Shown: piece by piece, positions 1,477 to 5,700 of the stretch
Numbering within the stretch: position 1 is the first letter of the stretch
How the letters are laid out: each line of letters begins with the position of its first letter
Virus record (IMG/VR): IMGVR_UViG_2645727680_000010
DNA from: a virus
Taxonomy: Duplodnaviria > Heunggongvirae > Uroviricota > Caudoviricetes
Direction: 5' to 3' (one strand)
DNA: 5,700 nt
The notes under the pieces: model-generated
Databases searched by the model: none
Told to the model about the DNA's origin: nothing
Seen by the model: only the letters and a program-made list of their open reading frames with translations
Program-made: the position numbers and the translations under genes

Positions 1477-1875
1477 TCAAACAAAACCAGCCGCTTTCCG
1501 GCGTTCATATTCCTGTTTCAGCAACTCAATTGGCGTTGGCCCCGACGGGCGTTTGGGGGCCGCCAGTTGTCGCCGGACTGGCGGAACGCTCAGGCCGTTA
1601 CTAACATGCTTTGCCCATTTCGTCAGTTGCCGTTCTGCAAGCCGTTTTAATTCCCCTTCGGTCATCTGGCGCTCAATCCCCTTTGAACGCATCTCGAGGC
1701 AAATGTGATACAGCACAGGCTGAGACCACGGGTACTTATCACTTCCGTCGTATCGCCAGGACTCATTGCGCCAGCGGCGGTACTCCTCCATCACAGCATC
1801 CACCGTCAGACCGAATGGATTGGCTCCGCTTTTCGAAATCAGTGCCACAAACTCAGCCANNNNNNNNNNATGCAC
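1477..1875 (-). CDS. Hypothetical early-operon protein; 5' end unresolved because of the N-run
   Basis: Open frame ending at TGA 1477-1479. The upstream part runs into the 10-N gap at 1860-1869. Candidate starts are GTG at 1873-1875 or ATG at 1789-1791 (GGTGGA about 9 nt upstream). No Walker motif or other recognisable domain, so it is not a DnaC/DnaB-type helicase loader. Confidence 0.5.
   Translation of the reverse strand: MHXXXXAEFVALISKSGANPFGLTVDAVMEEYRRWRNESWRYDGSDKYPWSQPVLYHICLEMRSKGIERQMTEGELKRLAERQLTKWAKHVSNGLSVPPVRRQLAAPKRPSGPTPIELLKQEYERRKAAGFV
1860..1869. other. Run of 10 ambiguous bases (N): assembly gap or masked bases inside coding sequence
   Basis: Directly visible. Ten N is not a multiple of three, so the true length and frame across the gap are unknown. 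Confidence 0.99.
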
Positions 1876-1902: not shown

Positions 1903-2943
1903 TCAGTCATCGCGCCAATCTGTGCAATCCAGAGCTTCGAAGGTGCGGCCCCGTTCTTCTGGGTCCAGCGGTTCGAATAAACCACCCCCATGAGTTCCCA
2001 CAGCTTCCAGGCCGTTTCCGTCGCTGATAAATCCGTTTTCACGTTCCCACTGCTCACGTGCTGCCCGAATTTCCTGAACTGCCCGTGATGCGGTGCCACC
2101 TGGTGCTGCTGCATGGTTTACCCCTTTGCTGACTGGTTTAACCTGCGCCCTGACGTGATTTACGTGACGGGCGAATTTCTGCTCCCACTGAATCTGCGTA
2201 AACACTTTCCCCTCCGCTGCCCAGTAGTCCCGGAAGGCGGCAAGTTCAGCAGGTGTAAATTCTGTCTCCGGCAAAGCCATCCCCCACAACGCAGCCCGTC
2301 GTCGAAAATCCCGTGACGGATACCAGCTATCGCTCATCGGGAATTTTCCGATGGGTTCGCTCAGGCCATACAGGAATACAGGGGGGGCTGCCTGTAACGA
2401 CAAAACTTCCTGCTCACTGGTCGGAGCACTCTCGCGTGCGTTATGTGTGGGGTTTAGATCTTTGGGTTCCTTTGGGTTCCGTGATCCGTTTTTGGGTGTC
2501 TTTGATGGAAAATTTGGGTGTCTTTGGTTATTTTCCATGCAGCTAAGAGTTCTGTTTTTGGGTCTGTTTTGTGCTGAAACATAACCATTTTCGGTACTGT
2601 TTTTATTAACAGCACCAATTTTACCCACCTTTAAAGACTCCCGTTTTTGGGTGTATTCAGGCTCGGCAACACTTTCTTCTACACCGATAAGTCGGTACAC
2701 CACAATTTGCTTTGTTCTGCCTTTTCTCTCACCGGTATCAACAATTAACCCAATCTCCATCAGGTGTCGTAAGCTGTCCTGCACAGTCTTTTTGTTCAGT
2801 TCCGTTACTTCTGCCAGTGCAGATACAGACGGGTATGCACACAAATCGGCACCGCACATATCAGCAAGCCAGGTCAATACTGACTTACTGGATGAACTGC
2901 CGGTTTTCACCTTTTTAGCCCATCGTAGTGCATCGATACTCAT
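1903..2943 (-). CDS. Phage replication initiation protein (N-terminal winged-helix DNA-binding domain, low-complexity linker, C-terminal DnaT-like domain); lambda O-like role
   Basis: First ATG of the frame is at 2941-2943 with AGGGG 5 nt upstream; the longer 3018 start is a TTG and overlaps the upstream gene by about 100 bp. N-terminus MSIDALRWAKKV...LAEVTELNKKTVQDSLRHLMEIGLI is typical of phage replication-protein HTH domains. The Pro/Lys/Asn-rich linker is encoded by the iteron array. C-terminal region resembles DnaT-type domains (recollection). Stop TGA at 1903-1905. Confidence 0.75.
   Translation of the reverse strand: MSIDALRWAKKVKTGSSSSKSVLTWLADMCGADLCAYPSVSALAEVTELNKKTVQDSLRHLMEIGLIVDTGERKGRTKQIVVYRLIGVEESVAEPEYTQKRESLKVGKIGAVNKNSTENGYVSAQNRPKNRTLSCMENNQRHPNFPSKTPKNGSRNPKEPKDLNPTHNARESAPTSEQEVLSLQAAPPVFLYGLSEPIGKFPMSDSWYPSRDFRRRAALWGMALPETEFTPAELAAFRDYWAAEGKVFTQIQWEQKFARHVNHVRAQVKPVSKGVNHAAAPGGTASRAVQEIRAAREQWERENGFISDGNGLEAVGTHGGGLFEPLDPEERGRTFEALDCTDWRDD
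2461..2652. repeat. Iteron-like direct repeats (6 x TTTGGGT, same orientation) plus adjacent AT-rich stretch; putative phage replication origin inside the initiator gene
   Basis: TTTGGGT at 2461, 2471, 2491, 2513, 2557 and 2646. Extended copies: TTTGGGTTCC x2 in tandem, TTTGGGTGTCTTTG x2, TTTGGGTCTG. Region 2571-2640 is about 36% G+C by hand count against about 55% around it. Same layout as ori-lambda inside gene O. Confidence 0.55.
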
Positions 2944-3466
2944 ACGAACCCCTGGCAGACATTTGTTTATCTGCAAAGTAATATTGGTATTGCTGACGAT
3001 ACGCGTGCTTGAAAGCAATAGCTTTTTCTATAAGCTCGTCAGTCTCACGTTCCACAACAACTGGATCCGCAAAAAGCAGCCCGGACTCCACCACATCGCC
3101 ATATTCTTTGTTTAACCCGGCGATCATGTACGTAATGCTTTTTCCGTCAGTAATTTCACAATACAATCTGAAATCGCTGATCCGGATAGCCTCCATAATT
3201 GCCGGAATCAGCGCCGTGAATTTGTCACGCTTATCTCTGGTGTCGATAGCTTTCCAGCGTTCGAATATCTTCACCCGGTTAACGCCCAGCGCCCGTTGAT
3301 CAACCTCGCCATCATTAAACGTGACGCGTTGAACATCGATGTTCGGGCGTTCTTTCAGAGCCCAGAATGCTTCCGTGATTAATATCGTCGCCTGCTCCTG
3401 TGTCATTCCTGGTCGGCATACCCAGGTATCCAGAGCCTCACAAACCTGTTCAGTGGTGATTTTCAT
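2915..3466 (-). CDS. CII-like / YdaT-family early regulatory protein (putative)
   Basis: 183-aa ORF with ATG at 3464-3466 overlapping the 3' end of the Cro-like gene by 17 bp, which suggests translational coupling. Its position right after cro is where lambdoid phages carry cII or YdaT-type genes. Family assignment rests on position and size, not on a recognised motif. Stop TAA at 2915-2917. Confidence 0.55.
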   Translation of the reverse strand: MKITTEQVCEALDTWVCRPGMTQEQATILITEAFWALKERPNIDVQRVTFNDGEVDQRALGVNRVKIFERWKAIDTRDKRDKFTALIPAIMEAIRISDFRLYCEITDGKSITYMIAGLNKEYGDVVESGLLFADPVVVERETDELIEKAIAFKHAYRQQYQYYFADKQMSARGSYEYRCTTMG

Positions 3467-3677
3467 TGTTCAACCGCCCCGCCCGCTTTGCCTTACGATA
3501 TTCGTCATAAACTTTGGGGTCGTACTGAAGTTCCCCGCCGGATGCCTCTTGCAGGCGCATCGCGCGACCTTCAGGAACCAGTTCCCCCCATGCAGCAACG
3601 CTTGCCAGCCTAACTCCTGCGACATTGGCAAGCTTTGTTTTGCTGCCAAAAAACGCTATAGCATCAATTTTCAACAT
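3450..3677 (-). CDS. dicC: Cro-like transcriptional regulator (DicC / YdaS family)
   Basis: 75-aa ORF with ATG at 3675-3677 and AAGGGG 6 nt upstream. Divergent from an XRE repressor. Size and sequence character (…GSKTKLANVAGVRLASV…LVPEGRAMRLQEASGGELQYDPKVYDEY…) match my recollection of DicC of the Qin prophage and YdaS-type proteins. Confidence 0.7.
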   Translation of the reverse strand: MLKIDAIAFFGSKTKLANVAGVRLASVAAWGELVPEGRAMRLQEASGGELQYDPKVYDEYRKAKRAGRLNNENHH

Positions 3678-3753
3678 ATCGAACCCCTTAGATTTTCCTA
3701 AGGAAACTAGATCGTAGAGAAACCTAAGTCAAGAAAAATTAGAATTACCTAAT
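3678..3753. promoter_or_regulatory. Divergent promoter/operator region of the repressor / Cro-like switch
   Basis: 76-bp intergenic region between divergent start codons. 18-bp palindrome CCTTAG-ATTTTC-CTAAGG at 3686-3703 overlaps the RBS of the Cro-like gene. TTGACT (-35-like) on the - strand at 3727-3732. TAGAAT (-10-like) on the + strand at 3740-3745, only 8 nt before the repressor ATG, implying a leaderless or near-leaderless repressor mRNA. Confidence 0.6.
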
Positions 3754-4161
3754 ATGAAAAACGAAACCTTCGGTGCTCGCCTCTTATACAGGCGAAAAAA
3801 ATTAAAACTGTCTCAGGCCGCATTAGGTAAGCTGGTCAAAGTGGCTCACGTAACAATTTCTCAATGGGAAAGAGATGAAACACAGCCAGCGGGGAAGAGA
3901 TTATTCGCACTGAGCCAGGCGCTTCAGTGCTCGCCGACTTGGCTTCTTTTTGGAGATGAAGATAAGCAACCAGGCGAACCGATCCCAGATAATCAGCCAG
4001 TCAATCTGACAGAAGATCAAAAAGAGTTGCTTCAACTGTTCGACGCACTGCCTGAGTCAGAGCAAAAGGCTCTGTTGTCAGAGATGCGTGCTCGAGTTGA
4101 GAATTTCAACAAACTTTTTGAAGAACTACTCAAAGCTCGCAAAAGAAGCGCAAATAAATAA
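3754..4161 (+). CDS. dicA: XRE-family phage repressor, DicA-like (CI-equivalent)
   Basis: 135-aa ORF with ATG start. N-terminal XRE helix-turn-helix (LSQAALGKLVKVAHVTISQWERDETQP) and a C-terminal helical region. Size, divergent partner and sequence match my recollection of DicA of E. coli Qin prophage. Stop TAA at 4159-4161. Confidence 0.8.
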   Translation: MKNETFGARLLYRRKKLKLSQAALGKLVKVAHVTISQWERDETQPAGKRLFALSQALQCSPTWLLFGDEDKQPGEPIPDNQPVNLTEDQKELLQLFDALPESEQKALLSEMRARVENFNKLFEELLKARKRSANK

Positions 4162-4259
4162 CCCCCCTTTTTTTCGCAACTCTCTGTAATAAAAAGCACA
4201 AACTTTCAAATACTTGTGTTTTTTACATCAAGAAGCTTAGGTTTTTCTACACAAAAAGC

Positions 4260-4289
4260 TTGACCATAACTCTTAGGCTATTCTAAATT
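4260..4289 (+). promoter_or_regulatory. Candidate sigma70 promoter for the downstream small-gene cassette
   Basis: TTGACC at 4260-4265 (5/6 to TTGACA), 18-nt spacer, TAAATT at 4284-4289 (4/6 to TATAAT), about 80 bp upstream of the first cassette ORF. Confidence 0.35.
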
Positions 4290-4301
4290 CTACTCATCAA
4301 G

Positions 4302-4315
4302 ACACCGCACGGTGT
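4302..4315. promoter_or_regulatory. 14-bp palindrome ACACCG-CA-CGGTGT between the candidate promoter and the cassette start; candidate operator
   Basis: Perfect 6-bp arms with a 2-bp centre, too tight for an RNA hairpin, so more likely a dimeric protein-binding site. Lies between the putative -10 and the RBS (AGAGGA, 4356-4361). Confidence 0.35.
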
Positions 4316-4368
4316 TCTCAGCAAACAGTTCCGCTACCCGGCGTTAAGGGGAAGCAGAGGATTTCTCA

Positions 4369-4725
4369 GTGGGCGAAGTCAAACATCAGAATGGAAGGCG
4401 TCCAGGGATCAGCAAAGAAACAGCGATGGCGCTTTATATTGATATCAGCGCCATTGCCGGACAGGTAAGAGTTATCAGAGCGGTAACTAAGCGGTATGCG
4501 CCTTTACTTCAGAAAGTCTCTGGTGAGTGCACCGAAGATATTGTCAACGATTTCGTCATCGAACTGCGAGGACTCATCTTCAGTTACAAGGTGACCACAA
4601 TTTTTGCAGATGGCTCCCGCGAAACTGTCAGAGCCCTGCGGCTTAAAGGATGTGTCAAAGACTTAGCCACCACATTCTGGGCAAGAAAACTTGATTGTAT
4701 TCATAACCAATTTCCTCTCGAGTAA
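4369..4725 (+). CDS. Hypothetical protein, 118 aa (GTG start), first gene of the accessory cassette
   Basis: GTG at 4369-4371 preceded by AGAGGA with a 7-nt spacer. The first in-frame ATG (4426) has no RBS. No TM segment or motif recognised. Stop TAA at 4723-4725. Confidence 0.55.
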   Translation: MGEVKHQNGRRPGISKETAMALYIDISAIAGQVRVIRAVTKRYAPLLQKVSGECTEDIVNDFVIELRGLIFSYKVTTIFADGSRETVRALRLKGCVKDLATTFWARKLDCIHNQFPLE

Positions 4726-4797
4726 CAGACCCCTCAGAGGATACCACCTCGCCTGACGTGGTTAAAAAGCAGGCAACGCTAACCACAAGGAGCCGAC

Positions 4798-5016
4798 ATG
4801 CAGAAACGAGACCCCGTCATCATCGCGCCAGACTATACCGATGATGAACTTTATGAGTGGATGCACCAGAAAATTAAGGCGGTGCAGGACCTGAAATGGG
4901 CCAATGAAGCCAGGGCTAAGCAGGCTGAAAATCTGTCCGCTCTGGAGCAGGATATCACCAATCTGGAAAAAGCAGCGGCATTAAGCATTGCCAGAATGAT
5001 TACATACCCACGTTAA
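4798..5016 (+). CDS. Hypothetical protein, 72 aa, helical/coiled-coil-like
   Basis: ATG at 4798-4800 with AAGGAG 5 nt upstream. Charged, helix-prone sequence (…KAVQDLKWANEARAKQAENLSALEQDITNLEKAAALS…). Same length as ydfC of Qin, but I cannot confirm identity from memory. Stop TAA at 5014-5016. Confidence 0.65.
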   Translation: MQKRDPVIIAPDYTDDELYEWMHQKIKAVQDLKWANEARAKQAENLSALEQDITNLEKAAALSIARMITYPR

Positions 5017-5038
5017 TAGCTAACCAACGAGGCTAATA

Positions 5039-5446
5039 ATGGAATTTAAAGATTTACCAACGCCATTACAGGAAATGGCATCGAATATAGTTCGTTCACA
5101 ACTGGCTACTCTTGACCTTAGTACCGCAGAAAAAGAAACCATCGATAATATGGTTCGTAATGTGCGCAATGCTTTTTCTGGGTTATATGGTTCTGATAAT
5201 CAAAAGCAGGAAAGCGATGTTAATAAACGGGTAATTTCTGTTTGCGTGAATGGCCATGTTCTTTCATCAATCAAAACAGAAACGGCGACAGTCTTCGATT
5301 GCCTTTGCATTGTACAGAGCCTTGTTGATGCCCTGTTTCGTTCAGTGAATTTAGAAAATGATGCAAATCTGCGAGGGCGCATAATAGCACATCCATATGC
5401 ACATACTTTAGGCTCTGTGGATATCAAAGATCCCACAAATCTTTAA
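5039..5446 (+). CDS. Hypothetical protein, 135 aa, low-GC accessory gene
   Basis: ATG at 5039-5041 with GAGG 6 nt upstream, 22 bp after the previous stop, so operon-like. About 37-40% G+C by hand count on lines 5041-5160, against about 58% on line 1501-1560. No recognised motif. Stop TAA at 5444-5446. Confidence 0.65.
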   Translation: MEFKDLPTPLQEMASNIVRSQLATLDLSTAEKETIDNMVRNVRNAFSGLYGSDNQKQESDVNKRVISVCVNGHVLSSIKTETATVFDCLCIVQSLVDALFRSVNLENDANLRGRIIAHPYAHTLGSVDIKDPTNL

Positions 5447-5657
5447 TGAAATAGTTAACGCGAATTGTACTTGCTCTTTCGGTTGCTTTCAGAATACGCG
5501 TTGAAACTGCTGGCGGTAATTTGGTATTCCATTTATTAAAATCATGCCCGGGAAAGTACTCTTCGAAAATACTTTTAACTGCAGACTCGCCTATTGAAAT
5601 GCTGCTTACCATGCGATTTTGATAAAGGCATTTAGCAATAAGAGTTGATTTTAACAT
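5424..5657 (-). CDS. Hypothetical protein, 77 aa, convergent with and overlapping the 3' end of the 135-aa gene
   Basis: ATG at 5655-5657 with AGGAGG 4 nt upstream on the - strand. Stop TGA at 5424-5426, overlapping 5424-5446 of the + strand gene by 23 bp. Low GC. No recognised motif. Confidence 0.6.
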   Translation of the reverse strand: MLKSTLIAKCLYQNRMVSSISIGESAVKSIFEEYFPGHDFNKWNTKLPPAVSTRILKATERASTIRVNYFIKDLWDL

Positions 5658-5700
5658 TCACCCTCCTGAGGGTTGGTAATTAAGGAGTTCTCCACGGGTG

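Follow-up and report, generated by a model that had tools for sequence, protein, structure and literature searches.

The interval 4369-5657 of a 5,700-nucleotide (nt) stretch of phage DNA (IMG/VR record IMGVR_UViG_2645727680_000010, Caudoviricetes; the whole stretch is called the window below) is, by sequence comparison, the promoter-proximal part of a repressor-controlled dicBF operon (pL-like, early-left) homologous to that of the Qin prophage. As read from the alignments, the interval is a mosaic of three separately exchangeable units in a conserved frame. Unit 1 consists of ORF1 and a minus-strand zinc-ribbon gene nested antisense within it, unit 2 is ydfC, and unit 3 is a low-G+C cassette with two convergent open reading frames (ORFs), ORF135 and ORF77. 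ORF77 and the C-terminal domain of ORF135, termed the P domain here, recur as a convergent pair in prophages of other genera. As an explanation of the whole, we lean slightly towards a three-unit mosaic dicBF operon in which ORF77 and the P domain form a cognate antagonist pair. An earlier note, made by a model from the letters of this DNA alone, had described the interval as a small-gene cassette of four uncharacterised ORFs. All four were found where that note had placed them, and their good ribosome-binding sites (RBSs) can be read from the sequence (Table 1).

The conserved frame and its three units

Positions 3700-5700 of the window are 100% identical to many chromosomes of enterohaemorrhagic Escherichia coli (EHEC) and O55:H7 strains and 99.9% identical to PPompW phage records. 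The prophage can be identified as PPompW, an ompW-integrated, defective lambdoid prophage of the Qin family in EHEC and O55:H7 E. coli. PPompW elements are defective and lambda-like, and reportedly occur in 44% of 767 complete E. coli genomes (PMC8112680). In the O55:H7 strain CB9615 (L001, whose locus is 100% identical to the window) and in PPompW_132418 (L002), the annotated order is replication genes, YdaT, Cro/DicC, DicA, a hypothetical protein and YdfC, followed by two hypothetical proteins (the second on the minus strand), DicB, DUF1482, exonuclease, xis, int and ompW. A copy of the small RNA (sRNA) DicF was found at L001 10293-10342, about 340 nt past the right end of the window (Rfam RF00039, 43.5 bits, E 1.3e-7), with a score under the Rfam gathering score of 48. 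Its 5' seed equals the Rfam DicF consensus and its terminator stem-loop is altered. Downstream of DicF, on the same strand and outside the window, dicB and a DUF1482/ydfD-like gene are annotated. The Rfam scan gave only DicF, sok and a weak STnc100 match under its gathering score, and none of these lies inside the ORF135/ORF77 cassette. The conserved frame thus comprises the promoter with its leader, ydfC, the ydfC-dicF spacer, and then DicF, dicB and the ydfD-like gene. Because all of these are kept in Qin, the relation is one of homology, not analogy. The earlier note had chosen the relevant system when it compared the cassette with the Qin dicB operon, but it had taken for a mere positional analogue what is the homologous operon.

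The repressor matches NF007257 over its full length and shares 63% identity with DicA of K-12, and the small ORFs lie directly downstream of it, as the earlier note had said. As in K-12, a Cro-like gene diverges from the repressor gene. Operator-like palindromes stand between these two genes and again at a promoter-like site in front of ORF1. A palindrome scan of the window counted 8 strand matches where 0.86 were expected, a number that none of 200 shuffles attained. In K-12, a DicA-repressed polycistronic transcript starts upstream of ydfA and is relieved by the Rem antirepressor (PMC10448788, PMC5069750). A rem homologue is annotated in PPompW_132418. We infer that the cassette is repressed by the local DicA-like protein; this fits because palindromes of the same type as the dicA/dicC intergenic ones flank or overlap the promoter-like site. 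K-12 (comparison locus L003) has TTGACC at the same place, and the leader is common to both; the similarity stops at the RBS of the first gene and resumes at the ydfC start codon. In contrast, the CTTAGG-N5-CTAAG repeats were not evident in the dicBp region of K-12 as read. Nothing is encoded between the repressor gene of the window and the promoter. The position is therefore not that of lambda rexAB, which the earlier note had proposed, but that of N, ral and sieB downstream of a pL-like promoter. Lambda and P22 carry accessory genes after pL, which resemble those of the window as small, non-essential genes just downstream of a repressor-controlled leftward promoter. They differ in that there is no sequence or fold similarity, that ORF77 is antisense to the operon and that no N-like antiterminator was identified.

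Within this frame, the window differs from K-12 Qin in two places. K-12 has ydfA-ydfB where the window has ORF1 (ORF118, or ORF99 from its second start) with the zinc-ribbon gene, and the window adds unit 3. This insertion is marked by the junction gctaaGGTTAGTAATTAAGGAG in K-12 and gctaaTAATGG...GAGGGTTGGTAATTAAGGAG in the window. Unit 3 is present at a coverage of at least 80% in 646 of 5426 complete E. coli genomes. Its G+C content (5020-5675) is 39.3%, against 48% for the window. By gene, G+C is 55.3% in the P gene, 49.9% in the O gene, 46.8% in ORF1, 48.4% in ydfC, 39.5% in ORF135 and 36.3% in ORF77, with 43.6% for the interval. Thus, the drop to 37-40% that had been reported for the cassette holds for the last ~650 bp (ORF135/ORF77), but not for ORF1 and ydfC, which lie close to the O gene. 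The single horizontally acquired cassette of the earlier note is better described as three separately exchangeable units, with low G+C in the ORF135/ORF77 unit only. Phage Evi (L005, 3332-5406) carries the same block of ORF99/zinc-ribbon gene, ydfC and ORF135/ORF77 behind a different repressor, followed by DicF (76.4 bits) and then by a Kil gene in place of dicB. Because the block stands behind another repressor there, it can be regarded as a mobile module.

ORF72 is ydfC. It is identical to K-12 YdfC at 68 of 72 residues (94%) over the full length, and RefSeq names it 'protein YdfC'. No functions are known for ydfA, ydfB and ydfC, and the genes next to them vary (PMC5069750, PMC10448788). Some phages have a fusion of a YdfC-like domain with a P domain (35% identity to YdfC of the window over 62 amino acids (aa), E 1e-9). 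This fusion suggests that ydfC is functionally linked to ORF135, the next gene in the window.

None of the four ORFs had an above-threshold match in Pfam, NCBIfam, PADLOC or a PDB sequence search, and their PHROG matches are families of unknown function only. PADLOC-DB v2, which the earlier note had recommended, gave nothing for the four ORFs and weak matches (E 0.002 or worse) for the zinc-ribbon protein and for proteins of the alternative cassettes described below. The products are thus uncharacterised, as had been claimed, except that ORF72 is recognisable as YdfC. No ORF showed full-length homology to a characterised protein, YdfC itself being of unknown function (PMC5069750, PMC10448788). 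At the same time, the 94% identity of ORF72 to K-12 YdfC, the 224 relatives of ORF135 in a homologue search and the homologues of ORF77 at 55-72% identity in other genera bear out the view that these are real accessory genes.

Table 1. Features in and around the interval 4369-5657; positions are those of the window
Feature	Position	Strand	Remarks
Cro/DicC-like (Cro/CI-family) gene	3450-3677	-	divergent from the dicA-like gene
three operator-like palindromes, CTTAGG-N5-CTAAG	3687-3702, 3713-3728, 3738-3753		between the divergent dicC/cro-like and dicA-like genes
DicA-family repressor gene, 135 aa	3754-4161	+	NCBIfam NF007257, 241.6 bits (cut-off 101), residues 1-135 of 135
two operator-like palindromes, same type	4236-4251, 4272-4287		at the promoter-like site; one between its hexamers
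promoter-like site equivalent to dicBp, TTGACC-N18-TAAATT	4260-4289	+	promoter scan (L001 8561-8590)
leader common with the K-12 dicBF transcript (caccgcacggtgttctcagcaaacagttccgctacc...gttaaggggaa)	4300-4351	+	direct sequence comparison
ORF1, 118 aa from GTG 4369 or 99 aa from ATG 4426	4369-4725	+	RBS AGAGGA 7 nt before GTG
zinc-ribbon gene, ECs_2282 family, 66 codons (pseudogene in the window)	4504-4704	-	nested antisense in ORF1, codons aligned
ORF72 = ydfC, 72 aa	4798-5016	+	RBS AAGGAG 5 nt before ATG; phrog_1744
exchangeable low-G+C cassette ('slot 2'), 640 bp	5020-5675		between the ydfC stop and the conserved ydfC-dicF spacer
ORF135, 135 aa	5039-5446	+	RBS GAGG 6 nt before ATG; phrog_1363 and phrog_23433
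N-terminal domain of ORF135, ~50 aa (MEFKDLP...GLY)	roughly 5039-5190	+	
C-terminal P domain of ORF135, ~aa 60-135	roughly 5216-5446	+	
overlap of the 3' ends of ORF135 and ORF77, 23 nt	5424-5446		near-palindromic AAAGAT...ATCTTT
ORF77, 77 aa, stand-alone	5424-5657	-	RBS AGGAGG 4-5 nt before minus-strand ATG 5657; against the operon
RBS and 5' leader of ORF77 (ccaaccctcAGGAGGgtgaATG, minus strand)	5658-5700	-	ydfC-dicF spacer starts at ~5676

Several other features of these prophages were observed. A run of 10 N at 1860-1869 lies within the replication-protein-P gene (1477-1875, minus strand), and XXXX appears in several ORF translations. Two further features concern window 2915-3677 and L001 2873-3175: a YdaT-family 'toxin' gene that overlaps the Cro-like gene on the early-right side of the window, and, more to the right in the prophage, a hokD/sok locus (sok 103.9 bits). 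Among the related loci, one (L278, 1694-2172) has a PaaA2/ParE toxin-antitoxin pair inserted between the repressor and the dicB promoter, and another (L275, 1-1265) has Mu-like transposase genes as an extra insertion beside the immunity region.

The nested antisense frames of unit 1

ORF1 lies in the place of ydfA-ydfB. It has no similarity to YdfA, and ydfA and ydfB are not the first genes of this operon. RefSeq and PHROG both choose the ATG at 4426 as its start (phrog_21318, 222 bits, residues 20-118). In E. coli strains with 95.6-99.5% identical DNA, RefSeq instead calls a minus-strand 'ECs_2282 family putative zinc-binding protein', and wherever the zinc-ribbon frame is intact it calls the minus-strand gene only. 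The translation of this frame in the window is MNTIKFSCPECGG*VFD...AICKNCGH, with the knuckle motifs CPECG...CKNCG. Codon 14 is TAA in the window (4663-4665, TTA on the plus strand) and GAA in other strains; the same stop is found in 21 related loci, and the frame is thus interrupted in the window. With its stop masked, the window allele scored 55.7 bits against the NCBIfam model of the ECs_2282 family (NF047912, cut-off 37), and an intact allele scored 57.3 bits; both alleles have both CxxC knuckles. The window copy is therefore like the family in score and in its knuckles and differs by the premature TAA. We read the zinc-ribbon gene as real, but as a pseudogene in the lineage of the window. 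It is a fifth coding feature, which the four-gene inventory of the earlier note had missed.

The selection acting on the two frames was compared in 170 related loci of E. coli, Serratia, Kluyvera and two groups of Klebsiella phages, among which 72 sequence pairs are distinct. Relatives of the zinc-ribbon protein in Klebsiella phages, Kluyvera and Serratia (27-53% identity) keep all four Cys, and the forward frame therefore needs GCA or ACA codons at these sites. The ratio of non-synonymous to synonymous differences (pN/pS) in the zinc frame was 0-0.28 in three of the four within-clade pairs and 0.66 in the fourth. L022 and L049 differ by four substitutions in the overlap, each of which is silent in the zinc frame and changes an amino acid in the forward frame. 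In the comparison of L049 with L017, pN/pS was 0.22 in the zinc frame and 1.34 in the forward frame. Variable sites fall at zinc-frame codon positions 3, 2 and 1 in the ratio 38:10:22, and blastp scores are higher for the zinc frame than for the forward frame. These patterns indicate that the zinc frame is clearly under selection.

The same evidence bears on whether ORF1 is a gene at all. It is a real possibility, though not the one we prefer, that ORF118/99 does not code for a protein itself and is either a shadow of the zinc-ribbon gene or a frame kept open for ribosomes against Rho-dependent polarity. The substitutions, pN/pS, codon-position skew, blastp scores and RefSeq calls given above all favour the zinc frame, and the chance that the antisense frame is open, given the zinc-ribbon protein, is 0.21-0.57 per lineage. 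Within the overlap, pN/pS of the forward frame is at least 0.75. Nevertheless, an open forward frame of 94-148 codons is present in each of the 72 distinct pairs except for a locus cut at a contig end; it is thus open in every lineage, and it always starts 24-31 codons beyond the zinc-ribbon gene, at ATG. Relatives from E. coli, Serratia, Kluyvera and Klebsiella phages keep both frames open. In the part of ORF1 outside the overlap, the forward frame had a pN/pS of 0.63, the lowest of the six frames, with differences by codon position of 96:69:129. Within clades, pN/pS in this part was 0.4-0.75 in most frames, and the frames were not discriminated. A good RBS precedes GTG 4369, exactly where the similarity to K-12 ydfA ends, which also speaks for a gene. 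Taken together, we consider it probable that the open frame of the forward ORF1 is maintained, be it for a weakly constrained protein or merely for its translation.

Two known functions were considered for the products of unit 1 and rejected. A restriction alleviation protein of the Lar/Ral type does not fit the zinc-ribbon protein (TIGR03655, 15.7 bits, cut-off 39.6), and the first gene after the pL-like promoter lacks the arginine-rich motif of an N-like antiterminator. Nothing was found on ECs2282 in the literature. Between ORF1 and ydfC, a 38-nt stretch (4738-4775) is found at ~97% identity in many records without ORF1; more than 1000 records matched this query in part only.

The convergent pair and the swappable slot of unit 3

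The homologues of ORF77 occur in seven other genera and are nearly always 77 aa long. The family forms 157 clusters at 50% identity, nearly all of them stand-alone small proteins, and a profile search of 1.84 billion proteins with ORF77 gave no informative domain fusions. The AlphaFold2 (AF2) model of ORF77 has five helices at a mean predicted local distance difference test (pLDDT) score of 97.3, and a search with this structure found no structural relative and no helix-turn-helix-like match. ORF135 is a two-domain protein. Its N-domain recurs in proteins of 122-212 aa from E. coli prophages, whose C-termini are unrelated. The P domain occurs on its own, behind short N-terminal extensions, behind the MEFKDLP domain in E. 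coli and, in one phage form, with an N-terminal ClpX-type C4 zinc finger (PF06689, 34.1 bits).

The earlier note had listed the two genes as members of a small-gene cassette and had missed that they form a conserved convergent pair. In prophages of Serratia, Dickeya and Klebsiella, in all contexts read, the ORF77 homologue is convergent with a gene of 77-79 aa and overlaps it by 23 nt. These pairs lie just after a CI-type repressor, and the pairing is also found in uncultivated phage contigs. The partners of 77-79 aa are homologous to residues 60-135 of ORF135 (35-42% identity), although a homologue search with the ORF135 C-domain alone did not reach this partner family. The overlap was found in 36 of the 39 distinct pairs (115 loci) and measures 23 nt, or 26 nt where ORF77 is 78 aa long. 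In the window the overlap is near-palindromic, and both ORF135 and ORF77 therefore end in IKD, three residues and L. Upstream of ORF77 homologues in other genera (L006, L011, L262-L272) stands a conserved promoter-like block of TTCACC or TTCTCC, 16-17 nt, TATCTT, ggagttctcacacaaccaagaagg and ATG, which has the look of a promoter and leader of their own. In one Klebsiella prophage (L011, 4874-4922, minus strand), the pair is closely followed in the pL direction by a weak DicF-like hairpin (29.9 bits, E 0.013). A DicF-type sRNA may thus come after the pair in genera other than Escherichia as well.

In E. coli, unit 3 occupies a slot whose contents vary. The window ends within the ydfC-dicF spacer common with K-12 ('ggttggtaattaaggagttctccacggg'). 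Three alternative cassettes were examined, with forward and reverse proteins of 133 and 76 aa, 208 and 69 aa, and 201 and 63 aa. All three lie before dicB, keep the N-domain and have the forward gene convergent with a reverse gene that is unrelated in each. The leader 'ccaaccctcAGGAGGgtgaa-ATG' and the conserved spacer are common to ORF77 and to two of the three alternative reverse genes (L274, L277). The variable part of the slot is therefore the C-terminal domain of the forward protein together with the reverse gene, with conserved sequence on either side.

We propose the following mechanism for the ORF77/P-domain pair. The forward genes would be co-transcribed with DicF and DicB only once the DicA-like repressor is relieved. 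ORF77 would be expressed from its own signals and, because it runs against the operon, mainly while the operon is repressed, as in the lysogen. Together they would be cognate antagonists, ORF77 on one side and the P domain, probably with YdfC, on the other. Mean column identity is 75% for ORF77 and 49% for its partner. Because it is far more conserved, ORF77 is proposed as the conserved effector on a conserved host or phage component, in exclusion or growth control. The P-domain protein would neutralise it after activation of the operon. Convergent transcription across the overlap would contribute to making the two states mutually exclusive, and pairs would be swapped between prophages by recombination in the conserved 5' part of the forward gene and the conserved leader of the reverse gene. 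A similar logic, a lysogen-expressed function with a phage-encoded relief factor, is known from P22 sieB/esc, an exclusion gene with a built-in antagonist.

Several observations weigh against this proposal. No convincing sigma-70 promoter for ORF77 was found in E. coli in the promoter scan, and the resident ydfC-dicF spacer takes the place of the promoter-like block seen upstream of its homologues. The terminator scan gave no terminator between the convergent ORF135 and ORF77. Nothing in the scans resembled known toxin, antitoxin, defence or anti-defence families, and the AF2 model of ORF135 (pLDDT 47.7) was unusable for a fold search. Adjacent overlapping genes are co-inherited regardless, and co-occurrence alone is no proof of a functional link. 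Furthermore, the P domain is retained in the 201-aa variant although the reverse gene there is another one, and a relative of the N-domain protein in Shiga toxin (Stx) phages has no reverse partner.

The last two observations also speak for independent accessory genes, which we regard as rather unlikely. The forward genes would then serve early takeover or anti-defence (cf. ral, gam, kil), ORF77 would be an unrelated lysogen-expressed moron, and the overlap would be compact packing in which both C-termini are constrained. The position does match that of the lambda pL accessory genes, and the neighbours DicF, DicB and YdfD act on the host (PMC5069750, PMC6832061, PMC10448788). The low G+C of the cassette points the same way; of the features of a moron, unit 3 has a deviant G+C (39% against 48%), and ORF77 shows no clear promoter or terminator in E. 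coli. However, the geometry and the partner domain persist across genera while the surroundings change, with ORF77 at 55-72% and the partner at 35-42% identity, and the other cassettes of the slot are likewise forward-plus-reverse pairs. We therefore prefer the cognate antagonist pair to independent genes.

It was also considered whether the roles are reversed, so that the forward protein would be a toxic takeover effector and the reverse protein, or an antisense RNA, a constitutive immunity against a dicB promoter that is leaky or fires stochastically. Type I toxin-antitoxin loci typically have convergent transcripts that overlap at their 3' ends; examples are txpA/RatA and bsrG/SR4 in Bacillus prophages. 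The pair is like these in being convergent, with overlapping 3' ends, in a prophage; it differs in that both partners are conserved soluble proteins, neither with a long hydrophobic stretch, and in that no hydrophobic toxin peptide and no antisense RNA were identified. The genes are convergent and without toxin or antitoxin families in Pfam or NCBIfam, unlike a type II toxin-antitoxin system. Closer to the reversed roles are the polymorphic toxin-immunity cassettes, which include the contact-dependent inhibition (CDI), Rhs and colicin types. They share with the slot a conserved N-terminal part, a variable C-terminal domain, a small variant-specific cognate gene and exchange at conserved flanks. 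The proteins of the window, in contrast, are small and cytoplasmic, have no delivery domain and no recognisable toxin or immunity fold, and are encoded convergently, and the P domain also occurs without the N-domain. The operon is toxic and fires spontaneously in a subpopulation (PMC10448788), as would suit a need for immunity. Even so, reversed roles seem quite improbable to us. The scans showed no fold or motif of a toxin. Of the two partners it is ORF77 that is better conserved, an unusual state for an immunity protein, and the P domain, alone or fused to dimerising domains, looks more like a binder than an enzyme.

The cognate antagonist pair might be only one example of a wider arrangement. 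In this extended form, the ydfC-dicF site would be a polymorphic locus of cognate effector/neutraliser pairs in enterobacterial prophages. The reverse strand of every cassette would encode a small effector made in the lysogen, and the forward strand a neutraliser made on derepression, with a variable C-terminal domain fitted to that effector; the overlapping transcripts would impose an either/or switch, and recombination at the N-domain and the reverse-gene leader would exchange the cassettes. Slot 1 (unit 1) would in addition be a genuine, fully nested antisense gene pair, open on both strands across genera. We hold the extended form, with both of its parts, to be doubtful.

Meaning for the dicBF operon and defective prophages

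The operon is already known. We found no description in the literature of the convergent-pair slot, the ORF77 and P-domain families, the YdfC-P fusion or the nested zinc-ribbon gene, and published comparisons marked the non-conserved genes merely as blanks (PMC5069750). The ORF1/zinc-ribbon locus provides a clean natural test case for the reality of fully antisense overlapping genes. It is also a warning for annotation, because the strand that RefSeq chooses at this locus hinges on one nonsense codon.

The dicBF operon provides an sRNA that acts on cell division, an activator of MinC with a second role in blocking phage receptors, and a lysis protein. The recombination-swappable slot of convergent pairs and the fusion of YdfC to the partner domain are concrete handles on this operon. 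They bear on the role of YdfC and on host modulation and phage exclusion by defective prophages, those of EHEC included, and such prophages are present in a large share of E. coli genomes.

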